A stretch of 11,119 bases of DNA from Candidatus Methanovirga meridionalis (GTDB taxonomy: Archaea > Methanobacteriota > Methanobacteria > Methanobacteriales > Methanobacteriaceae), in contig JAITPS010000248.1 in the NCBI GenBank assembly GCA_031289325.1, positions 1 to 11,119 on the forward strand, written 5' to 3'. The position numbers were made by a program, and so were the translations under genes. Positions 122-11,119 of this stretch are shown piece after piece (position 1 is the first letter of the stretch; every line of letters begins with the position of its first letter). The notes below the pieces were generated by a model. That model worked only from the letters and a program-made list of their open reading frames with translations, made no database searches and was not told the DNA's origin.

Positions 122-420
122 TTATAGTCATTATGGAAAAGTTCTTAAATTTTGAATAATAACTTTTTTTATTAAATTATTTAATTTTAAATATTATTTC
201 ATGAAACTCTATAATTTTTAATTTATAATAATATAAATATATTTTAATTAATATAAGTAATTCTTAATTAATATAACTAATTCTTAATTAATATAACAAA
301 TTTTAAATTAATATAACTAATTCTTAATTAATATAACAAATTTTAAATTAATATATTTAATAATATTTATTTTTAAAAAAGTTGTTTATTAAGGACTTTA
401 TCAAAACCATTATAATTACA
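122..420 (+). repeat. Copy A of a dispersed ~300-bp intergenic element. It comprises a 5' block (122-197), an internal ~20-bp-period array (244-359) and a 3' block (356-420). Imperfect terminal inverted repeats are AAAGTTCTTAA (138-148) and TTAAGGACTTT (389-399).
   Basis: Copy A is colinear with the copy at 10626-10885 and shares ordered blocks with it. It matches the reverse complement of 5957-6316. Its 5' block also matches 4296-4372. Confidence 0.8.
244..359. repeat. Tandem ~20-bp units (TTAATTAATATAACTAATTC / CAAATTTTAAATTAATATAA), including a 40-bp higher-order unit present twice (270-309 and 310-349)
   Basis: Read directly from the sequence. Confidence 0.85.
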
Positions 421-640
421 AACATTTTTTACATAAATTAAAAGAAAACACTTGAATGGCATCGATAATATAGTCTAAATTCTCATGGTTAAAACCAAAT
501 TTCAAATCTTTGAAAACCATGTCTTTTACACAGCCCAAATATCTACCCAAATATCTAATTAAATTTTATTTATAGTGTAATTAAACATCTGTGTGTAATT
601 TAAAAAAATTTCATTATTGAAATTGTTCAATTTAGACTCT

Positions 641-677
641 CAAATAAAAAAAAAAAGGAAAAAAAGAAAATATATAT
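641..677 (-). terminator. Oligo-T tract immediately downstream of the hdrB stop (minus strand reads ATTTTCTTTTTTTCCTTTTTTTTTTTTATTTG)
   Basis: Archaeal transcription terminates at oligo-dT runs. There is a run of at least 11 T within 35 nt of the stop codon. Confidence 0.6.
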
Positions 678-1583
678 TTACTCTGTCGCATTAGCATCTA
701 ATTCTGCAACTAATTTAGCGAGAACAGGATCAGAGCTTATTTGATGAGCATCTAAAGTTAAATCAGTTTTGTTTAATCCCATAGCTAATCCATAAAGTTG
801 AGCTAAATGGAAAACAGGAATTTGATAATTAGTACCATACTTCTGATTAACTTCAACTTGACCTACATCAAATTGCATGTGACAGAATGGGCAAATTTCA
901 ACTATAGCATCAACATCAGCATCGGTCATGTTGTCAAGTTTTTCTTTGGTGATACTTAAAGTAACATCTTTATCTCTTGCTCTTAATCCACCACCAGCAC
1001 CACAGCACAACATTTTATCTTTATATGGAATAGACCTTGCACCAGTGACTTCAACAAGTTCATCTAAAATTTGTGGTCTTTCAGCATTGTCAATACCAAT
1101 ATCTGCAGTTGGTTTTAAAAAGTGACAACCATAGTGAACAGCAACATCTAAGTTTAATTGCTTGTCTACTAATTCATTTAATTTATCAAGACCAACTGAG
1201 TTATATAAAACTTCAGCAAAATGTCTAACATTAATAGAACCTTTATATTCTTTGCCAACTTCAGATAAAACTTCATTTACCTCATCTTTAAGTGTTGCAT
1301 CATGTTGTAGTTCTTCATTAGCTTCAAATAATGAGCCAAAACACCCATTACATTCAGTCATTAAATCAGAACCCATTTCTTCGGCAATAGCTATGTTACG
1401 AGCAGCTATTGAAACCCATGTTTTTTTATCAAATGAACCAAAAACACCAGGAGCAGGACAACAGGATGCTCCGTGCATATCATTAAGGGCGAAATCTAAT
1501 TTATCAAATAAAATTCTTGTTGCTTTTTCAATTCCAGGATATCGGTTGTTCATAATACAACCTAAGAAGTATGCAATTTCCAT
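678..1583 (-). CDS. hdrB: Heterodisulfide reductase subunit B (HdrB), CCG-domain protein
   Basis: 301-aa ORF. The N-terminus MEIAYFLGCIMNNRYPGIEKATR and the motifs ASCCPAPGVFGSFD and LCCGAGGG match the two cysteine-rich CCG domains of HdrB. The SD AAGGAGAT lies 5–6 nt upstream of the ATG (minus strand, about 1586-1596). The gene starts 18 bp downstream of the hdrC stop, giving hdrCB operon order as in Methanothermobacter. Confidence 0.9.
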   Translation of the reverse strand: MEIAYFLGCIMNNRYPGIEKATRILFDKLDFALNDMHGASCCPAPGVFGSFDKKTWVSIAARNIAIAEEMGSDLMTECNGCFGSLFEANEELQHDATLKDEVNEVLSEVGKEYKGSINVRHFAEVLYNSVGLDKLNELVDKQLNLDVAVHYGCHFLKPTADIGIDNAERPQILDELVEVTGARSIPYKDKMLCCGAGGGLRARDKDVTLSITKEKLDNMTDADVDAIVEICPFCHMQFDVGQVEVNQKYGTNYQIPVFHLAQLYGLAMGLNKTDLTLDAHQISSDPVLAKLVAELDANATE

Positions 1584-1601
1584 TTTAAAATCTCCTTAAA
1601 A

Positions 1602-2681
1602 TTATTCAACTAATTCATTGGTTTCCATATTGTAACCAATTAATTTATCAAATCCAGTTGCTTTACAAATAGTTCTTATATCTTCTAATGCTTTTGCTTC
1701 GGAATGAGTTGTTGGTGGTAATTCAGATAATCCAACCTTTTTCCTTAAAATTTTAGTAGCATCATTGATTGGTACGCCATGTCCAGTTTTTATAACAAAT
1801 GAACCAGTTGCTCTATGAGCAGGAGCCATAAATCCAGCTTTAGCAGCTTCATTACGTGCTAATTTAATAATTTCAACTATTTTAACACTTCTTGGGCATC
1901 TTTCTTGGCAAGTATAACATGTTGTACACATCCATAATGCTGGATCAGAGATTACATCATCTTTTAATCCCATTAAACACTTTCGAACAATTTGTCTTAC
2001 TTTATAAGGAGTTCTTCTTCCTGAAGGACATCCTCCACTACATGTACCACATTGAAAACAATGTTCTACAGTATCAATACCTGCATCAACAAACAATTGT
2101 GTAAACTCTTTGTTAACATTTTCAGGTCTAATTACCAAATTTTCTTCTAATAAAGTCATATTATCTCCTTTCTTATTTTTTTCTTCTGAAACTTTAGTTT
2201 TTTCTTCAACAGCTACAGCAACTTCATCTTTAGAACCTTTTTCTTTTTTTAAAGTTGGTTTGTCATTTTTAACTTTAATTTTTTCATTTTCAACAGTTTT
2301 CACTTCAGATATTTCTTCTTTTTCATTAGTTTCCTTTTTAGCAGGTCTCTCAATTGAAGCATTTTTCTCTTTAGTGGATCCTGTTTCAACAGGCTTTTCT
2401 TTTTCAACAGTTTCCTGTTTTTTAGGCTCTGTTTTAACGGATTCTTCAGATTTAGGTGTCGTAGAATTTTTAGTAACAGAAGAATCAGTTTTCTCTTCTG
2501 TAATTTCATCTGTGGAAGAACGTTTGTCTTTAGAATCAATATCTTCTTTAACAGGTGCTTCCTTAACAGATTCATTCTCAATTACATCCTGATTATCTCC
2601 TTTAAAGAGAGATTTTAGATATTTAATTAAAGACATTTTTATCACACCTTTGAAATTAATGGTATACACCCTTAATTTCAT
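1602..2681 (-). CDS. hdrC: Heterodisulfide reductase subunit C (HdrC; 2x[4Fe-4S] ferredoxin domain) with an unusual ~160–175-aa K/E/T-rich N-terminal extension. Alternative starts are at 2636 (Met16, SD GGTGTGAT) and 2159 (Met175 MTLLEEN, the canonical HdrC N-terminus, strong SD AGGAGAT).
   Basis: The C-terminal 185 aa (MTLLEENLVIRPENVNKEF...CFQCGTCSGGCP...CTTCYTCQERCP) has the canonical HdrC length and both CxxCxxCxxxCP cluster motifs. The frame stays open a further 522 nt upstream through non-repetitive Lys/Glu/Thr/Ser/Pro-rich sequence. A TATA-like TTTATATA at 2705-2712 (minus strand) would place a transcription start near 2681, so the longest form may be translated from a leaderless mRNA. 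Confidence 0.8.
   Translation of the reverse strand: MKLRVYTINFKGVIKMSLIKYLKSLFKGDNQDVIENESVKEAPVKEDIDSKDKRSSTDEITEEKTDSSVTKNSTTPKSEESVKTEPKKQETVEKEKPVETGSTKEKNASIERPAKKETNEKEEISEVKTVENEKIKVKNDKPTLKKEKGSKDEVAVAVEEKTKVSEEKNKKGDNMTLLEENLVIRPENVNKEFTQLFVDAGIDTVEHCFQCGTCSGGCPSGRRTPYKVRQIVRKCLMGLKDDVISDPALWMCTTCYTCQERCPRSVKIVEIIKLARNEAAKAGFMAPAHRATGSFVIKTGHGVPINDATKILRKKVGLSELPPTTHSEAKALEDIRTICKATGFDKLIGYNMETNELVE
2160..2172 (-). promoter_or_regulatory. Strong internal Shine-Dalgarno (GAAAGGAGATAAT) immediately 5' of the canonical HdrC Met codon at 2157-2159
   Basis: The minus strand reads GAAAGGAGATAATATGACTTTATTAGAA. The AGGAGAT sits at optimal spacing from the ATG. Confidence 0.6.
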
Positions 2682-2704
2682 ACTAATTATTTTTGAATGT
2701 GTAG

Positions 2705-2712
2705 TATATAAA
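2705..2712 (-). promoter_or_regulatory. TATA-box-like TTTATATA upstream of hdrC, with an abutting inverted repeat GGTTAC-N16-GTAACC at 2713-2740
   Basis: This is the best consensus archaeal TATA match in the 190-bp U32-hdrC spacer. It lies about 27 bp upstream of the first in-frame ATG of hdrC (2681). The inverted repeat occupies the BRE/upstream-activator position. Confidence 0.45.
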
Positions 2713-2827
2713 GGTTACTAAAATTTTGATTTCTGTAACCCTTTAGGCACCACATAAATATATCTTAAAATAGCTTTATATTTTAATTTAATCCATTATT
2801 TTAATAAAATATTAAATTATTAGATAA

Positions 2828-4033
2828 TTAAATTTTTATAAGCTTATAAACATGATCATTTTTTCTTATTTTATTTTTAATAGCTATTGCTACATTTTTA
2901 CCTTTCTCTACTTTTTTAATAGCTTTGCCATTAATTTCCATTGATTCAACTATCTGATTAATAGAACCCGTTGTATTTCCTTGAATTATTATTTCATCAA
3001 ACAAATTTAAATCATCCCATAACTGAATTTCAGCAACTTTAATTTTGTTATAATAATTAACAACTTTTCCAATATCTTTTTTCCTATAAGTTGCATCGTT
3101 ATCCTTACTAATTTCATAAGGTTGATTAAAATAGAATCCAGTATCAAAACCACGATGGAAAACTTTTCTTAAATCTAATAACCATTGAGGATTGAATTTA
3201 TATTTTTTTTGATTTACATTATATTGGTCAATAGCCTCTCTAAAAACTTTTGTTGAAGTTGCTACATAATCTGGAGATCTTCCTCTACCTTCAATTTTAA
3301 ATCCATCAACACCACTTTCCATAAGTTCAGGAATATGTTCTATCATGGTTAAATCTTTTGCAGATAAAAAATTTGTTTTATATGTTTCATCATAAGATTT
3401 TGCAAGAATTATTTCTTCTTTAATCCCATTTTCTATAGTTAATTTCCATTCTTTCCTGCATGGTTGTAAACATTTCCCACAGTTTGCACTTTCACCATAT
3501 AACCCATAACTTAAAAAACATCTTCCAGATATTCCCATACACATTGCACCATGAACAAAAACCTCAGTTTCAATAGGTGAGTTTTTAGCTATTTCTTTGA
3601 TCTCACTAAATGATAATTCTCTTGAAAGAATGACTCGACTAACACCAAGCTTTTTTAAAATTTTAAGTGTTTTAGTATTAGTCACATTACTTTGAACACT
3701 TAAATGAACATTAAAATGATTTTCAACACTAATATCAACCATTCCTAAATCACTCACTATAAGAGCATCAACTTCATAGCTATTAATCTCTGGTAAAATA
3801 GTTTTAAACTCTTCAATATCTTTATCTTTCATCACAGTATTAGTGCATAAATATAATTTTTTATCATGCTCATGTGAAACATTTACAAGATTTTTAAGAT
3901 CTTTAACATTGAAATTACTTGCATTGTTTCTCATGTTTGATCCATCAAGCCCAACATAAATAGAATCAGCACCATTTTTCAATGCACTATTAAATGAAGA
4001 TAAGTTTCCAGCTGGAGCTAACAATTCAACCAT
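2828..4033 (-). CDS. Peptidase U32 family protein (collagenase-like YhbU/RlhA/TrhP family)
   Basis: 401-aa ORF. The N-terminus MVELLAPAGNLSSFNSALKNGADSIYVG matches the hallmark M-x-ELLAPAG...GADAVY start of U32 proteins. Conserved Cys residues (CMGISGRCF, CGKCLQPC) are present. The SD GGTG lies 7 nt upstream of the ATG. Confidence 0.85.
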   Translation of the reverse strand: MVELLAPAGNLSSFNSALKNGADSIYVGLDGSNMRNNASNFNVKDLKNLVNVSHEHDKKLYLCTNTVMKDKDIEEFKTILPEINSYEVDALIVSDLGMVDISVENHFNVHLSVQSNVTNTKTLKILKKLGVSRVILSRELSFSEIKEIAKNSPIETEVFVHGAMCMGISGRCFLSYGLYGESANCGKCLQPCRKEWKLTIENGIKEEIILAKSYDETYKTNFLSAKDLTMIEHIPELMESGVDGFKIEGRGRSPDYVATSTKVFREAIDQYNVNQKKYKFNPQWLLDLRKVFHRGFDTGFYFNQPYEISKDNDATYRKKDIGKVVNYYNKIKVAEIQLWDDLNLFDEIIIQGNTTGSINQIVESMEINGKAIKKVEKGKNVAIAIKNKIRKNDHVYKLIKI

Positions 4034-4200
4034 TAAAACACCTTTAAAATTTTAAGTTGGATTTAAACATTCCTTAGATTTAAACAGTTTCTATATAATA
4101 AATAAAAACAATCTATTTGTATAAAATAAATATTTAAAATAGATATTATAATAATTAATTCAAAACATTTAATTTAATTCATAAAATATTTAATTATAAT

Positions 4201-4271
4201 TCCAATTTTTTTATTAATTCTCCAATTTTTTTATTAATTCCATTTTTAAAAAATCAATTTTTAAAAAATCA
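4201..4271. repeat. Short tandem duplications: TCCAATTTTTTTATTAATTC x2 (4201-4240), then ATTTTTAAAAAATCA x2
   Basis: Read directly from the sequence. Confidence 0.8.
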
Positions 4272-4295
4272 TTATTATTTTAATTTAAAATTTTT

Positions 4296-4500
4296 AATAT
4301 ATGAGCATATGGGAAAGTTCCTAAATTTTAAAATGATAATTTTTTATTAAATTATTTAATTTTTAATATCATTTTATAAAATCTGCAATTTTAAATAATA
4401 TCTATTTTAAATTTTAAATTAATATCAATTTTAAATAATATAATAACATTTTGATTAATATAATATATCAAAAAATAATATCACAAAATAATATCACAAA
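4296..4500 (+). repeat. Copy B of the dispersed element. It has the 5' block (TATGAGCATATGGGAAAGTTCCTAAATTTTAAAATGATAATTTTTTATTAAATTATTTAATTTTTAATATC, 4296-4372) and the AATTTTAAATTAATAT array motif, but no recognisable 3' block.
   Basis: About 85% identity to 122-197 across ~75 bp, including the shared 27-mer TTATTAAATTATTTAATTTT(A/T)AATAT. It sits in the divergent U32/gap intergenic region, about 260 bp from either start codon. Confidence 0.75.
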
Positions 4501-4635
4501 ATTTATATACTTATATAAACTGATTTTATATTATGAGTTTTACTTTTCATGAAAATAAAAGCAAACTTAGATATTATTTATTCGATATTTTAAAAATTAT
4601 GTTTAAATTATATGAAATTTCAATGGAGATTTATA

Positions 4636-5652
4636 ATGAAAGCATCTGTAGCAATTAATGGATACGGTACAATTGGAAAAAGAGTAGCTGATGCAGTTTC
4701 AGCTCAAGATGATATGAAAATTATTGGTGTTAGCAAAACAAGACCAAATTATGAAGCTAAAATAGCTGTTGAGAAAGGATATGATTTATACATAGCTATT
4801 CCAGAGCGTGAAAAGTTATTTGATGAGGCTGGAATTGAAATAGCTGGAACAACTGATGAAATGATTGAAAAATCAGATATTGTTGTTGACTGTACACCTG
4901 GTAATGTTGGTCCTGAAAATCTTGAGAAATATAAAGCAAGCAATGTTAAGGCAATTTATCAAGGTGGAGAAAAACATACCCTTACAGGATTATCATTTAA
5001 TTCTATTGCAAACTATTCCGATTCTGTAGGAAAGGAATATACAAGAGTTGTATCCTGTAATACAACTGGTTTAGCTCGTAGTTTAACTCCTATTAGTAAA
5101 AACTGGGGAATTAAAAAAGTTAGAGCTGTTATGGTTCGTCGTGGTGGAGACCCTTATCAAGTTAACAAAGGACCTATTAATGGAATCGTTCCAAACCCAC
5201 CTAAAGTTCCTTCTCATCATGGTCCTGATCTTGAGACTGTATTGAATGGTGTAGATATCACAACAATGGCTTTATTAGTCCCAACTACTCTCATGCATCA
5301 ACATAATTTAATGGTTGAACTTGAAAATGATGCAAAAATTGATGATGTAATTGATGTATGGGAGAAAAGATCAAGAGTTCTTTTATTAAAAGCAGAAGAT
5401 GGTTTAACTTCAACTGCTGGATTCATGGAATATGCTAAAGAACTTGGAAGAAATAGAAATGATTTCTATGAAATTCCTATTTGGAGAGAATCAATTAATG
5501 TTGTAGATGGAGAATTATTCTACATGCAGGCAGTACACCAAGAATCCGATGTTGTTCCTGAAAATGTGGATGCTATAAGAGCATTATTAGAATTAGAAAC
5601 AGATGGTGAAAAATCTATAGCTAAAACCAATAAAGCTATGGGAATTTTATAA
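4636..5652 (+). CDS. gap: Glyceraldehyde-3-phosphate dehydrogenase, archaeal type II, phosphorylating
   Basis: The Rossmann motif [17 protein letters not shown] and the catalytic-Cys motif VVSCNTTGL are typical of archaeal GAPDH. The ORF in the track begins at 4612, but the ATG at 4636 has the SD GGAGAT 6 nt upstream and gives the canonical N-terminus MKASVAING. An oligo-T tract follows the stop. Confidence 0.9.
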
Positions 5653-5670
5653 TTTTTTCTTTTTTTTATA
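5653..5670 (+). terminator. Oligo-T tract TTTTTTCTTTTTTTTATA directly after the gap stop codon
   Basis: Archaeal oligo-dT terminator signal. Confidence 0.65.
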
Positions 5671-5956
5671 TATTAATTTTAGTTATATCAATTTTCAACT
5701 GATGAAGACATAATACTTTCTTTAATATTTATAGTTCCTCATTTTAAATCATTTTTAAGAACTTTATAAGATCAATACAGTACTAAAAAAAGATTTTTAC
5801 TTATAATGTTTCACATAACTAATGTATTTTATTATTACAAAAAATTATTACAAATTATTTTTTAAATATTAGTATTCATCGTTTAAATTTGATTTAAAGA
5901 AATAAAAATCATTTTTGATTGTATCTATTTAATTTGGATTTTGTAAAAGTAGTATA

Positions 5957-6316
5957 GTGGTTTTGATAAAGTTTTTAATAAATAACTTTTTTTTAAAATT
6001 AAATATTATTAAAAAAATTAAGTATTATTAAAAGATATTACTTAAAATTATTTTATATTACTTAAAACTATTTTATATTGCTTGAAATTATAGTAGTTTT
6101 GATAAAATTCTTAATAAATAATTTTTTTAAAATTAAATATTATTAAAATATATTTATTTAAAATTGATTATATTAATTAAAATAAGTGTATATTATTTAA
6201 AATTTAAAATTATTGTTTTTTATAAATTAATATTCAAAATTAATTAATTTAATAAAAAATTTATTATTATTCAAAAAAATTTATTATTCAAAATTTAAGA
6301 ACTTTTTCATGAATGA
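5957..6316 (-). repeat. Copy D of the dispersed element in inverted orientation. The reverse-complemented 3' block is at 5957-6015 and the reverse-complemented 5' block at 6228-6316. There are internal duplications: a second 3' block at 6088-6150 and 20-bp tandem units ATTACTTAAAATTATTTTAT at 6037-6089.
   Basis: 5957-6012 (GTGGTTTTGATAAAGTTTTTAATAAATAACTTTTTTTTAAAATTAAATATTATTAAAAA) matches the reverse complement of 356-410 at over 90%. 6285-6315 (TTCAAAATTTAAGAACTTTTTCATGAATGA) matches the reverse complement of 128-157 with only 2-3 mismatches. Confidence 0.8.
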
Positions 6317-6330
6317 ATATATTTTGCATT

Positions 6331-6430
6331 AATTAAAAATTATTTATATTAATTAAAAATTATTTATATTAATTAAAAATTATTTATATTAATTAAAAAT
6401 TATTTATATTAATTAAAAATTATTTATATT
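6331..6430. repeat. Perfect tandem array of a 20-bp unit AATTAAAAATTATTTATATT, 5 copies, with a degenerate sixth unit
   Basis: Read directly from the sequence. The array is flanked on the right (6440-6494) by a partial second inverted copy of the element 5' block (AATATTTAAAATTAATTAATTTAATAAAACAATTTT). Confidence 0.95.
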
Positions 6431-6556
6431 AATTAATATTTAAAATTATTGATTTTTATAAATTAATATTTAAAATTAATTAATTTAATAAAACAATTTT
6501 ATAGAACATTACATAAGTGATATTAAATTAATCATGAAGCATAGGTTTAAAGCTAG

Positions 6557-6598
6557 AAAGTCTTTGATTTTCTTTTATTTCTTAAAATCAAAAACTTT
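6557..6598 (+). other. Hairpin with 15-bp arms AAAGTCTTTGATTTT / AAAATCAAAAACTTT and a 12-nt loop. It has one C·A mismatch in the plus-strand transcript and would be a perfect stem with a U·G pair in the minus-strand transcript. T-tracts follow on the plus strand.
   Basis: Reverse-complement comparison of 6557-6571 against 6584-6598. The hairpin lies 110 bp upstream of the SPFH gene start. Confidence 0.5.
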
Positions 6599-6708
6599 AA
6601 GAATTTTAAATTAATTTTTTAGAGAAAATAATTTTAGATAGAATAAATAGCTTAAATAAATAGCTTAAATTAATAAATGACTTAAATTAAGATATAAAAG
6701 GTGATATA

Positions 6709-7674
6709 ATGGATCCAATAATAGTGATTATAGTATTTGTAATAGTAATTATCATTGCTGCAAGAGCATTAAATATTTTAAGACCTTATGAAAAGGGAGT
6801 TGTTGAAAGATTAGGTAAATATCAAAGGACTGTTGAAAGTGGTTTGACATTTGTAGTTCCTTTCATTGAAAAAATTAGAACTGTCGACCTTCGTGAACAA
6901 GTAGTCGATGTTCCACCTCAAGAAGTTATTACAAAAGATAATACTGTGGTTATTGTTGACTGTGTAATTTTCTATGAGGTTATAGACCCTTTTAATGCCG
7001 TTTATAATGTTGTTAACTTTTATCAAGCTATTACAAAATTAGCTCAAACTAATTTAAGAAATATTGTTGGTGATTTAGAACTTGACCAAACCCTAACATC
7101 AAGAGAAATGATCAATACTCATCTTCGCGATGTTCTTGATGAAGCCACTGATAAATGGGGAACTCGAGTTGTAAGAGTTGAAATTCAAAGAATTGAGCCT
7201 CCAAAAGATATTGTTGATGCAATGAGTAAGCAGATGAAAGCTGAAAGAATGAAACGAGCATCTATTTTAGAAGCAGAAGGGTATAAACAGTCTGAGATTA
7301 AAAGAGCTGAAGGGGATAAACAAGCAGCTATTCTTGAATCAGAAGGTCGAGCTGAAGCTATTAAAAAAGTAGCAGAAGCTAATAAATACAAAGAAATAGC
7401 CACTGCAGAAGGTGAAGCAAAAGCAAACCTATCTATTTACGAATCTATTCATAAAGGTAATCCTACGAACGAGTTAATAGCTATTAAATATTTAGAATCA
7501 CTTGAAAAAATAGCTGATGGTAATTCAACAAAAATATTCCTCCCAGCTGAACTTTCTGGAATTTTAGGCTCTGTTGGTACAATAGCAGATTTATTTAATA
7601 AAGAAGATTTTAGTAAAAAAATAGTAAATCCTGAAAATAAAGCAGAAAGAAATGAATCAAATGATAACAATTGA
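6709..7674 (+). CDS. SPFH/band-7 family membrane protein (stomatin/prohibitin-like)
   Basis: The N-terminus has a hydrophobic transmembrane segment IIVIIVFVIVIIIAARALNIL. A PHB/SPFH core follows (YEKGVVERLGKYQRTVESGLTFVVPF...ITKDNTVVIVDCVIFYEVIDP...). The tail is E/A/K-rich coiled-coil-like sequence (EAEGYKQSEIKRAEGDKQAAILESEGRAEAIKK). The SD GGTGAT precedes the ATG. Confidence 0.85.
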   Translation: MDPIIVIIVFVIVIIIAARALNILRPYEKGVVERLGKYQRTVESGLTFVVPFIEKIRTVDLREQVVDVPPQEVITKDNTVVIVDCVIFYEVIDPFNAVYNVVNFYQAITKLAQTNLRNIVGDLELDQTLTSREMINTHLRDVLDEATDKWGTRVVRVEIQRIEPPKDIVDAMSKQMKAERMKRASILEAEGYKQSEIKRAEGDKQAAILESEGRAEAIKKVAEANKYKEIATAEGEAKANLSIYESIHKGNPTNELIAIKYLESLEKIADGNSTKIFLPAELSGILGSVGTIADLFNKEDFSKKIVNPENKAERNESNDNN

Positions 7675-7785
7675 TTTCAATAATAACTCTCTTATCTATA
7701 ATTTAAACTAATCTTATTATTATAATTTAAGATTTATTTATTCTTTTATTATTAAAATATATTATTTAAAATATTAGGTGATTAA

Positions 7786-9024
7786 ATGAAAGGCATGATA
7801 TTAGTAATTGATGGTTTAGGAGATCGTCCAGTGGAAGAATTAAGTAATCAAACACCATTGCAAAAAGCTAAAACTCCAAACTTGGATAAAATGGCTGAAA
7901 ATGGAATTAATGGAATTATGGATTCTATAGCGCCTGGTATTCGTCCAGGTAGTGACACAGCCCATATAGCTATATTGGGTTATGATCCTTACACTGTTTA
8001 TACTGGTAGAGGTCCGTTTGAAGCATCTGGTGTTGGATTAGATATTAAAGCTGGAGATGTTGCTTTTAGATGTAATTTTTCTACTGTTAATGATGATTTC
8101 ATTGTTACGGATAGAAGAGCTGGAAGAATAAAGAAAGATACATCACCTCTCATTGAAAAACTAAATAAAATGACCATAGAAAGTTATGAAGATATTGAAA
8201 TAATATTTAAAGAATCAACTGGTCATAGAGCAGTTCTAGTTTTAAGAGGAGATGGTCTATCAGATGAAATATCTGATGGTGACCCAAAAATTGTAGGAAA
8301 ACCACCTAAAACAATTTATCCTACAAGTAATTCTCCTGATGCAGAAAAAACTGCTGATTTATTAAATAAAATTATTAAGGAATCTTATAAAATTCTTAAA
8401 AATCATCCATTAAATTTAAATAGGATTAAGAATAATGAACCCCCTGCTAACATTATAATTCCACGTGGTGTTGGTCTTGTTCCTGAAGTTGAAGAACTTA
8501 ATAAAAAGTATGGGATAAATTCTGCTTGCATTGCTGAAACTGGACTTATAATGGGAATTGCAAGATTTGCTGGGATGGATATTATTGAAGTTGAAGGTTC
8601 AACAGGCAGTGTAGATACAAACTTAGATAATTTTATAGATACTATTCTTAACACTGTAAACAATACCAACCATGACTTTCTATTAGTCAATATTAAGGGA
8701 GCAGATGAGTCAGGTCATGATGGTAATGCTAAAGAAAAAATGGAATTTATTGAAAAGATAGATGATGTAGTATTTAGTAAGATATCACAACTTCAAGATA
8801 TTGTTACAATTGTAACAGCTGACCACTCTACTCCAATCACTGTTAAAGATCATAGTGCAGATCCTGTTCCTATTCTTATATATGGAGAAGGTGTAAGAGT
8901 GGATGATGTTAAAAGATTCAATGAAATTGATTCTGTTAAAGGAGGGCTTTTAAGACTTAAAGGTTCTGATTTAATGAACATTCTTATGGATTTAATAGAC
9001 AATACCCATAAATTTGGTGCTTAA
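7786..9024 (+). CDS. apgM: 2,3-bisphosphoglycerate-independent phosphoglycerate mutase, archaeal form (ApgM)
   Basis: 412 aa. The N-terminus [12 protein letters not shown] and the internal motifs ([30 protein letters not shown]) match the archaeal iPGM metalloenzyme family. The SD AGGTGAT precedes the ATG. Confidence 0.85.
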
Positions 9025-9068
9025 AAATATTTAAAATATATCTAAATTTATATTAAATTGGTGAATTA

Positions 9069-10424
9069 ATGACCCATGAAAAACTTTTTGGAACTTCAGG
9101 TATTAGAGCTAAAATTGGAGATGTGATAAATGGAGAATTCGCTTTAAACATAGGTCGTGCTATAGCCACATACTTAGGTGGTGAGGGAAATGTTATAGTT
9201 GGTTATGATACCAGAACCAGCAACCAACTTCTTGAACATGGTATCACTGCGGGTTTAATTGAAAGAGGATGTAATGTTATTAAATTAGGCATGGTTCCAA
9301 CACCACTATCTGGATATGCTACATATAAACTTAAAGCAGATTCAGGAATAATGATAACGGCATCACATAATCCTTCCCCCTACAATGGAATTAAAATTTG
9401 GGATAAAAATGGAATGGCATACACTCAAGGAAAAGAAAAAGAAATTGAAAAAATTTATTTCTCAAAAAATTTTCAAGAATTAAAATGGGATAGAATTGGA
9501 AAAATATATGAAAACAAAATTATTCAAGAGGATTATATTAATAAACTATTAAATATAGTTAATATAAAAACAGGATTAAAGGTTGTAATCGATCCAGCAT
9601 CAGGAGCCGCATCATATTTATCCCCTTTGATTTTTAAACAGGCAGGTTGTGAAGTAATAACTTTAAACTCTCAAATAGATGGATTTTTCCCTGGCAGAAA
9701 TCCAGAACCAACTGAAGCTAACCTACAAGATCTAAAAAAAGCTGTTGTTGCTACAGATGCAGACATTGGAATAGCACATGATGGAGATGGAGATAGAATG
9801 ATTGCTGTAGATGATAAAGGGCGAGTATCTGACTTTGATAAACTTCTATCCATCATCTCAAAAAAATATGCTAAAAAGGGCACTATTATAACAACATTCG
9901 ATGCTGGAATGTGTGTAGATGATGTAGTTGAATCAGCTGGTGGGAAAGTTATACATACAAAAGTAGGAGATGTTTCAGTTGCTGAAGCTATTATAATGGA
10001 AAATGCAAGTTTTGGAGGAGAACCTTCTGGAACATGGATTCATCCAGAATTTTGTATGTGTCCAGATGGAATACTTTCTGGATTAAAAATTGCAGAAATA
10101 GTATCTCACGAAGGAAAATTGTCTGATTTATTAGATGCATTACCAAACTACCATAATATCCATGAAAAAGTTTTAGCAAATAAAGAAGAAAAAATATTTG
10201 TAATGAAAAGTCTTAAAAAAGATATTAAGAATGTTTTTACTAATATAAAAAATATAAATACTCTTGATGGAATTAGAGTAGAATTTAATGATAGTTGGGT
10301 TTTAATAAGACCTTCTGGAACAGAAGACTATATAAGAATAACCTTAGAAGGAAAAACTTTAGAAAGAGCAAATGAAATTAAAAAAACTTCAATTAATCTA
10401 ATTAAAAGCTATTTAAATAAATAA
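9069..10424 (+). CDS. Phosphohexomutase family protein, most likely phosphoglucosamine mutase (GlmM) or PMM/PGM
   Basis: 451 aa. It has an FGTSGIRAK N-terminus, the active-site serine loop ITASHNPSPYNGIKI, the metal-binding DADIGIAHDGDGDRM and the sugar-binding loop GEPSGT. These are the diagnostic alpha-D-phosphohexomutase motifs. The gene lies 44 bp downstream of apgM and has the SD GGTGA, so co-transcription with apgM is likely. Confidence 0.8.
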   Translation: MTHEKLFGTSGIRAKIGDVINGEFALNIGRAIATYLGGEGNVIVGYDTRTSNQLLEHGITAGLIERGCNVIKLGMVPTPLSGYATYKLKADSGIMITASHNPSPYNGIKIWDKNGMAYTQGKEKEIEKIYFSKNFQELKWDRIGKIYENKIIQEDYINKLLNIVNIKTGLKVVIDPASGAASYLSPLIFKQAGCEVITLNSQIDGFFPGRNPEPTEANLQDLKKAVVATDADIGIAHDGDGDRMIAVDDKGRVSDFDKLLSIISKKYAKKGTIITTFDAGMCVDDVVESAGGKVIHTKVGDVSVAEAIIMENASFGGEPSGTWIHPEFCMCPDGILSGLKIAEIVSHEGKLSDLLDALPNYHNIHEKVLANKEEKIFVMKSLKKDIKNVFTNIKNINTLDGIRVEFNDSWVLIRPSGTEDYIRITLEGKTLERANEIKKTSINLIKSYLNK

Positions 10425-10625
10425 ATAGATAAATAGATAATAAATTGTTGATTACGAAATGAATTTAGTTAATTAAATTGGTAGTGCAAAATTAGGATGG
10501 ATTTTTACAATTGAAAAATTAAAAACAAAAAAGTTTAATGACATGTGTATGATCTAAATTTTGTGATCTAATTTTTTCTATTAAACCCCCAAATTATGGA
10601 TTTTGAACTTCATCCTCTTTTTATA

Positions 10626-10885
10626 GTGCCATTATTATATGGTTATTATGAATAATTTTTTAAATTTTGAAGTATAAATTTTTTTATTTTTTTATTAAAT
10701 TATTTAATTTTAAATATTAATATATAAAAATCCATAATTTTAAATTTTAATTAATATTAATATATTTTAATTAATATAAACAATTTTAAATTAATATCTT
10801 TTAATAATACTTATTTTTAATAATACTTATTTTTAAAAAAAGTTATTTATTAAGAACTTTAACAAAACCACCGTAATATAACTCA
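10626..10885 (+). repeat. Copy C of the dispersed element: 5' block 10626-10720, array motifs 10741-10835, and 3' block with TTAAGAACTTT at 10850-10860
   Basis: Colinear with 122-420. The reverse complement of its 3' motif is an exact match to AAAGTTCTTAA at 138-148. Confidence 0.8.
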
Positions 10886-10998
10886 TTTATATTATTATAA
10901 ATAAAGTACAATTTTAAATAATAAAAGAAAATTAAAATCTTAAATTATAAGAGTTATTATTGCAAATAAATTTTTATATTATTTTAAAAACTTTAAAA

Positions 10999-11119
10999 TT
11001 GAAATTAAATGATTAGTAATTGAAATTAAATGATTAGTAATTGAAATTAAATGATTAATAATTAAAATTAAATGATTAGTAATTGAAATTAAATGATTAG
11101 TAATTGAAATTAAATGATT
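10999..11119. repeat. Tandem array of a 21-bp unit TTGAAATTAAATGATTAGTAA, at least 5.8 copies, truncated by the right window edge
   Basis: Units at 10999, 11020, 11041, 11062, 11083 and 11104. Units 3 and 4 each carry a single substitution. Confidence 0.95.

Follow-up and report, generated by a model that had tools for sequence, protein, structure and literature searches.

The Stowaway elements of plants are miniature inverted-repeat transposable elements (MITEs) that depend on Tc1/mariner enzymes: AT-rich sequences of ~100–300 bp with terminal inverted repeats and a TA duplication, which reach very high copy number near genes. In archaea, Redder et al. are said to have described in 2001 a Sulfolobus MITE, SM1, with the IS630-family insertion sequence (IS) ISC1048 as its partner. 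Prokaryotic MITEs have been defined descriptively as small, non-coding elements with sharp terminal repeats, a target duplication and dispersed copies (PMC2229807), and dozens of archaeal types have been catalogued (PMC3852290). Among bacterial examples, the RUP elements of Streptococcus pneumoniae target TA, and their mobilization by IS630-Spn1 has been proposed (PMC2229807), whereas the Correia elements of Neisseria (CREE/NEMIS) have no known cognate transposase (PMC5039591, PMC2229807). Here we analyze an 11,119-nucleotide stretch of DNA (hereafter, the window; contig JAITPS010000248.1, assigned to Candidatus Methanovirga meridionalis) that carries several copies of an intergenic repeat, family 1, which is very probably a family of non-autonomous DNA transposons, that is, of MITEs, in an uncultured Methanobrevibacter lineage of the arthropod- or termite-gut type. 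The family is new; MITEs as a class are already known, including in archaea. A first-pass annotation of the window, which could recall no described equivalent, had overstated the novelty of the repeats, as TA-flanked, AT-rich MITEs with terminal repeats are well described in bacteria, archaea and eukaryotes (PMC2229807). The literature that we searched contained no description of MITEs in Methanobrevibacter.

Alignment and repeat finding recovered the family at essentially the places at which it had first been noticed, with block matches far exceeding chance: a degenerate 24-nt pattern for its 3′ block (TTATTAARRAYTTTAWCAAAACYA) had four exact matches in the window, compared to 0.00 expected from shuffles, and the corresponding 24-nt pattern for its 5′ block had four, compared to 0.01. 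When the 3′ block pattern was scanned against one genome per species (GTDB), at least 73 loci matched. At least 71 of the matching contigs belonged to a single metagenome-assembled genome (MAG), Methanobrevibacter sp. Po218_bin58 (JAITOM01), and the two others listed were single chance matches in bacteria. We used the contigs of this MAG that were retrieved through the 3′ block match (406 kb) as the sampled relative, to which the counts below refer. Elsewhere, a metagenome collection yielded 11 chance hits, none of which was confirmed by the family-1 profile described below, and viral, plasmid and phage collections yielded nothing specific to family 1.

With up to three mismatches allowed, the count was 132 for the 3′ block and 103 for the 5′ block, and 59 simple 5′-to-3′ pairs displayed a sharp length mode of 198–200 nt between block ends. 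In an alignment of 27 canonical copies, each with 80 nt of flank, similarity began and ended abruptly at TATAG... and ...CTATA, and the flanks were unrelated and did not align. A 214-nt profile made from this alignment gave 190 hits. Of these, 48–54 were near-full copies, most often 214 bp long, which makes the canonical element shorter than the ~300 bp first estimated. Its ends are 26-bp imperfect terminal inverted repeats (TATAGTCATTTTGGAAAAGTTCTTAA / TTAAGAACTTTATCAAAACCACTATA; 22 of 26 positions Watson–Crick) with a shared core, AAAGTTCTTAA, such that the inverted terminal motif reported in the first-pass annotation is real and longer than claimed. The interior retains the ordered architecture described there, with the 5′ block followed by approximately three 20-nt units (TTAATTAATATAAATAATTT) and then the 3′ block. 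The element has ~9% G+C and no coding capacity, and no open reading frame (ORF) of ≥50 amino acids overlapped any window copy. The number of tandem units does vary, as proposed, with 6.3 in one window copy (copy A) versus ~3 in the canonical element; expansion and contraction of the internal units, probably by replication slippage, would yield such a variable array and explain the length variation between copies.

Near-full copies had a median identity of 93% to the consensus and of ~90% to one another, and column identity was 91–93% in the terminal repeats versus 91% in the interior, which left the ends no better conserved than the rest. This even divergence along the element suggests a recent burst followed by neutral decay. 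The copies were confined to intergenic DNA, in keeping with the earlier description, in that only 28 of 28,121 element bases overlapped ORFs of ≥100 amino acids, even though such ORFs cover 60% of the DNA.

Evidence for transposition came from copies that had inserted into repetitive DNA, where the sequence before insertion can be reconstructed. One stretch of the window, previously read as one copy with internal duplications, in fact contains two nested copies, an outer, older one and an inner one (C1). Removing C1 (6089–6320) together with one TA restored the 20-nt register of the interrupted copy; removing it while keeping both TAs, or neither, shifted the register by 2 nt. The same 2-bp TA duplication was implied by a copy on MAG contig L009 that lies within a tandem array of 20-bp units, and again by a copy nested within another on contig L024, at GTTATT-TA-TTAAGAAC. 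These three natural equivalents of an empty site supplied the target-site duplication for which the first-pass annotation had recommended looking. TA flanked 150 of 168 ends on each side (89%), and the surrounding preference was symmetric, AT-TA-AT.

The MITE-like element that had been offered as one of two readings is supported by the terminal inverted repeats, the TA duplication, the nested insertions, the dispersal of more than 190 copies or fragments among unrelated flanking sequences, and the ways in which two lineages of 92–93% identity differ. Family 1 is small and non-coding, with sharp terminal repeats, a target duplication and dispersed copies, and thereby fits prokaryotic MITEs as they have been described (PMC2229807). 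As a mechanism, we propose that a transposase supplied in trans would bind both terminal repeats, and that the element would integrate at a TA dinucleotide, duplicating it, with AT-TA-AT as the preferred target, to judge from the anatomy of the copies. A DDE transposase would be expected, with the IS630/Tc1-mariner superfamily as its likeliest source. The family probably amplified recently in this lineage, with copies surviving only in AT-rich intergenic DNA, either because genic insertions were lost or because the target is itself AT-rich; after insertion, copies would decay neutrally and offer targets to MITEs, of this family or of others, that insert later.

In its mode of operation, family 1 resembles the Correia, RUP and Stowaway elements. 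The Correia elements are likewise non-coding, with 26-bp terminal repeats, a terminal TA, a target duplication, and hundreds of mostly intergenic copies (PMC5039591, PMC2229807). Even the terminal bases coincide, with TATAGTGG in the family-1 3′ repeat and in another family of the sampled relative (family 3, below) corresponding to Correia TATAGTGGATTAACAAAAA... (PMC5039591). Correia elements differ, however, in their bacterial host and in their length of ~107–155 bp, compared to the 214 bp, 9% G+C and slippage-prone 20-nt array of family 1, and they carry TATAGTGGATTAACAAAAA(C/T)C(G/A)G... at both ends, of which only the first 8–9 nt coincide with family 1 (15/26 overall; sequences quoted in PMC5039591). 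The shared terminus is a lead, not evidence of homology. RUP elements resemble family 1 in being TA-targeting, AT-rich and intergenic, and in also inserting into mobile elements (PMC2229807), but they are 107 bp long, and their short terminal repeats have a counterpart in a known resident IS630 element, whereas no partner was found for family 1. SM1 shares with family 1 an archaeal host, non-autonomy, terminal repeats, a target duplication and presumed mobilization in trans, but has another sequence, is ~80 bp rather than 214 bp long, belongs to a thermoacidophile rather than a gut methanogen, and has a known partner IS. Stowaway elements differ in their eukaryotic host and unrelated sequence.

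The other reading offered initially was that the repeats are functional small-RNA genes or cis-regulatory modules, each with a TATA-box promoter and a T-tract terminator, that are kept by selection. Although the units are strictly intergenic, a TATA-like TTTAAATATT and T5–T8 tracts can be read in the sequence as possible archaeal promoter and terminator signals, and the element ends can pair in a single-strand fold, we consider this reading very unlikely. Orientation relative to neighboring genes was unbiased (11 co-directional and 9 opposite in tandem intergenic regions), and the ~7% divergence was uniform along the length, with no better-conserved core. Across 54 copies, substitutions in the terminal repeats broke pairing in 65 cases, kept a G–U pair in 35, and were compensatory in only 5, which led us to reject a long-range RNA stem with G–U compensation between the blocks. 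Scanning the window with the Rfam 15 covariance models returned no match at E ≤ 1, and a scan of the window for tRNAs and tmRNAs likewise returned none. At 9% G+C, any sequence is bound to contain TATA-like strings and T-tracts, the copies interrupt one another, and the family-1 profile had no hits in ~38 kb sampled from three related lineages that carry the same genes, one of them with a glyceraldehyde-3-phosphate dehydrogenase (GAPDH) gene 90% identical at the DNA level. A leader peptide, MEKFLNFE*, that could be read from the 5′ block was dropped because its ATG is TTG in the family consensus. If the repeats are MITEs, promoter or oligo-T terminator action on neighboring genes would be incidental.

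Several observations weigh against the MITE reading. No autonomous partner was found in the 406 kb of fragmented MAG contigs, where no ORF lay between distant terminal-repeat pairs, and no DDE transposase was found among nine multi-copy ORFs scanned against Pfam. Were it not for the nested cases, TA borders the copies so regularly that one might count it among the bases of the terminal repeat. Between strains, no clean orthologous filled-versus-empty site was recovered for family 1 when contig L057 was compared with the window, because the intergenic regions diverge too quickly to align (L057 did not align outside repeats). The sampled contigs were chosen for containing a match, which biases upward our density estimates of about one family-1 copy per 2–3.5 kb, with family 1 taking up 6.7% of the sampled DNA and 17% of the non-coding DNA within it. 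Finally, the joins across repeat copies in the window were unconfirmed by a second assembly, such that the order of segments rests on the path of one assembler.

With respect to the missing enzyme, IS copies are often missing from MAGs. The only long pair of family-1 terminal repeats, considered as a candidate autonomous element, enclosed an amino-acid permease gene. The multi-copy ORFs encoded TPR proteins, a Na/H exchanger, ferredoxin, nitrogenase-like proteins and one PD-(D/E)XK 'Rpn-like putative transposase' (L048:4665–5543, minus strand, and L029:1–399, minus strand; Pfam PDDEXK_2, E = 1e-32; copies 88% identical). The copy on L048 has a family-1 MITE on either side, but no connection between this gene and the elements emerged.

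We tentatively favor an enzyme of the IS630/Tc1-mariner superfamily, based on the exact TA dinucleotide duplication, which family 1 shares with the IS630/Tc1-mariner-dependent MITEs of the Stowaway and RUP type; the alternative is an IS5-type enzyme that also duplicates TA. Some IS5 subgroups make 2–4-bp duplications. Because no transposase was found, the superfamily assignment rests solely on the 2-bp TA duplication, and the same MITE might instead be mobilized by an enzyme outside IS630/Tc1-mariner, either of an IS5-family subgroup with 2–3-bp duplications or of an unknown family. Several co-resident families share termini of the ...CACTATA type and a AAGTTCTTAA motif, which indicates a lineage-specific enzyme. 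Nonetheless, a strict TA duplication, a palindromic AT-rich target and terminal repeats of >20 bp form the classical IS630/Tc1-mariner signature, as exemplified by RUP and IS630-Spn1 (PMC2229807), which makes an enzyme from outside the superfamily possible but unlikely. IS630 and Tc1-like elements have been reported in archaea, including Methanobacteriota (PMC13343696).

The high copy number, intergenic location and lack of a detected DDE transposase would also be expected if family 1 were palindromic elements of the REP/REPIN-like or IS200/IS605 type, mobilized by a HUH enzyme (RAYT/TnpA) that acts on single strands. Such elements make no target-site duplication and use short G+C-rich hairpins, however, whereas family 1 shows a TA duplication and long AT-rich 26-bp inverted-repeat ends, and none of the nine scanned ORFs was RAYT-like. 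We therefore give this explanation almost no credence.

Differences between close relatives were consistent with turnover of MITE copies. Contig L057 is orthologous to positions 650–4449 of the window (92–93% nucleotide identity), but upstream of the U32 peptidase gene the partial plus-strand copy of the window (copy B) is replaced on L057 by a full, minus-strand family-1 copy. Downstream of hdrB, both have a plus-strand family-1 copy with unrelated flanks, of which the L057 copy contains a nested family-2 element (a second MITE family, below) with an 8-bp duplication, and the window copy does not. Directly upstream of this L057 copy lies a group II intron remnant (L057:1–770), in which domain V/VI matches RF00029 (40.7 bits, 685–761) and is preceded by a short frame resembling the N terminus of a reverse transcriptase; in the window, this location is occupied by a tandem array with 15-bp units. 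Two other routes to orthologous empty sites were unproductive: GAPDH homologs in relatives were in different gene neighborhoods, and look-ups of exact proteins returned only contigs of the same sample.

The possibility that the repeats in the window were made by mis-joined metagenomic reads could be assessed because sample SRR14710897 had also been assembled independently (Logan), and three contigs of that assembly are identical to window positions 356–4343, 4340–5793 and 6464–10686. This assembly breaks at every repeat, with five contig ends inside the window (at 356, 4340–4343, 5793, 6464 and 10686), all within repeat copies, and copy B is truncated exactly where two contigs meet (4340–4343), such that its truncation could be an assembly join. 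Contigs ending inside repeats support the multi-copy status of these sequences, while neither the way in which the window is joined across repeats nor the truncated state of copy B is verified by them. Yet family 1 occurs with intact borders on at least 71 contigs of an independently assembled MAG, and parts of copies are present at independent contig ends. At most, the order of unique segments is doubtful, not the existence of the family, and an artefactual origin is extremely improbable.

The copies in the window are listed below together with its other features. The first-pass annotation had begun copy D at 10626, too early because an abutting family-2 element was partly included, and had listed a minimal fragment at 5728–5766 that is not a member by profile. 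This fragment sits in a separate repeat family of ~130 bp (~5694–5815 in the window; 12 hits in the MAG contigs) that has only a 13-nt core, TTAAGAACTTTAT, in common with family 1.

Table 1. Repeat elements and genes of the window. Profile positions refer to the 214-nt family-1 profile.
Feature	Coordinates	Strand	Remarks
Family-1 copy A	123–414	+	Full length, 292 bp; 92.5% identity to consensus over 212 columns plus 80 inserted nt (four extra 20-nt units); flanking TA at 123–124 and 413–414; terminal repeats at 123–148 (5′) and 389–414 (3′); profile hits span positions 2–153 and 100–212
Expanded 20-nt array of copy A	229–355	+	Tandem Repeats Finder: period 20, 6.3 copies, 87% matches
Family-1 copy B	~4297–4412	+	5′ portion only, profile positions 9–116; no 3′ terminal repeat; degenerate unit-like sequence runs on to ~4500
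Outer, older family-1 copy, 3′ part	5953–6088	-	Profile positions 153–213 at 5954–6015; alignment positions 86–214; 3′ terminal repeat at 5953–5978; exact 3′ block match at 5958–5981
Family-1 copy C1	6089–6320	-	Full length, TA on both sides; profile positions 10–213, 101 bits; 90% identity to consensus
Outer, older family-1 copy, 5′ part	6321–~6525	-	Profile positions 40–152 at 6386–6498; 84% in profile alignment; degenerate 5′ end; 20-nt array at 6328–6436, 5.4 units, 100% identical (Tandem Repeats Finder)
Family-2 MITE copy	10480–10630		Terminal repeats GGTAGTGCAAAA...TTTTATAGTGCC; region matches 33 MAG contigs; abuts copy D
Family-1 copy D	10638–10875	+	Full length; profile positions 2–174 and 154–213; 89% identity to consensus; diverged terminal repeats (5′ repeat 19/26); 16-nt internal duplication
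hdrB	678–1583	-	
hdrC	1602–2681	-	
U32 peptidase gene	2828–4033	-	
Archaeal GAPDH	4636–5652	+	
Band_7 gene	6709–7674	+	
apgM	7786–9024	+	
Phosphoglucosamine-mutase-like gene	9069–10424	+	

Family 1 shares the intergenic DNA with other repeats. Family 2, found by a terminal-repeat scan and census, has a modal length of 144 bp, terminal repeats GGCACTGTAAAA...TTTTACAGTGCC, and 8-bp target-site duplications, such as GTTTTGAT, CAAAAATT and AGAAAATC. Its terminal repeats had 114 hits in the sampled contigs, among them L007, L009, L013, L023 and L057, and it was often inserted into or beside family-1 copies. No autonomous partner of family 2 was found in these contigs, where distant pairs of its terminal repeats, considered as candidate IS elements, proved not to be such. 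A third, MITE-like family of ~213–230 bp (family 3) has the ends TATAGTGGAATAAAAAAAGTTTG... and ...AGCTCACTATA, a TA duplication and ~12 copies in the 406 kb (for example, at L010:~4095–4284, L068:779–988 and L025:7163–7369, and on L060), with none in the window; it is found nested inside family-1 copies. In addition, window positions 5694–5815, 5790–5951, 7704–7775 and 10876–10984 recur at 75–88% identity on 3–21 other MAG contigs and thus represent additional families of interspersed repeats. In the sampled contigs as a whole, sequence found again in at least three other contigs made up 47% of non-coding bases, compared to 0.3% of coding bases.

Short tandem arrays also occur, at 1–118, 4201–4271, 4465–4502, 6642–6690 and 10997–11119 in the window and at, for example, L005:2175–2380 and 8881–9157. 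These intergenic arrays are perfect or near-perfect (such as 15 bp × 7.9 at 100% identity, and 21 bp × 5.9), with units mostly of 15, 16, 20 or 30 bp. The first-pass annotation had regarded flanking satellite arrays as a property of the family, which did not hold up: 38% of full copies, versus 17% of random intergenic points, had an array no more than 100 bp away. We rejected the idea that the arrays belong to the element, as the sequences beside the copies show no conservation and relatives have arrays but no element. The intergenic DNA of M. cuticularis, a species without family 1, is filled with comparable arrays, which therefore appear to be a trait of the clade; possibly, they are also a favored insertion target.

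The window is very AT-rich, with G+C of ~30–36% in genes versus 5–13% in intergenic DNA. The identity of its GAPDH protein is 92% with the protein of an uncultured Methanobrevibacter MAG, 82% with that of M. cuticularis, and 79–80% with that of M. arboriphilus, which places the organism among the uncultured Methanobrevibacter of arthropod and termite guts. The neighbors of the GAPDH gene differ wholly in four related lineages, being U32 and Band_7 in the window (4034–6708), CDC48 and Spt5-L11 on L002, histones on L004, and topo VI on L005, despite GAPDH proteins that are 82–92% identical, which suggests frequent rearrangement, perhaps at repeat-rich intergenic regions. The hdrC ORF, of 344–359 amino acids, has a low-complexity, K/E/T/S-rich N-terminal extension of ~170 amino acids before canonical HdrC (MTLLEENLV...). 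Because the extended ORF is retained in the L057 ortholog (91% identity), the extension may be translated.

A broader proposal, prompted by the TA-TAGTGG terminus shared with Correia elements, is that much of the unusually large non-coding fraction was built by co-resident MITE families and tandem arrays, and that the TA families with ...CACTATA termini share one transposase system with the orphan Correia elements. The 47% share of repeated non-coding bases and the failure to find a transposase in the sampled contigs are compatible with this proposal, but we regard it as speculative and probably incorrect; if true, it would imply a cross-domain 'orphan MITE' system that spans archaeal families and the Correia elements of Neisseria. 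More immediately, for annotators, the intergenic 'structured repeats' seen here are selfish DNA rather than regulatory RNAs, and family-1 elements could serve as strain-level markers. Every contig end that we checked lay in a repeat, which explains the poor assembly of these genomes. Termite-gut Methanobrevibacter have a coding density of 60–68%, with the low density attributed to genome erosion and repeats unmentioned (PMC11287868, PMC13135261). Alongside family 1, the sampled contigs contain two or more additional MITE families and several interspersed repeats of other kinds, and interspersed repeats amount to about half of their non-coding DNA. This load of MITEs and repeats would be a specific factor, open to testing, that contributes to low coding density in the Methanobrevibacter of arthropod guts. 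The main point is thus the copy density of family 1 and its implication for genome architecture in this clade.

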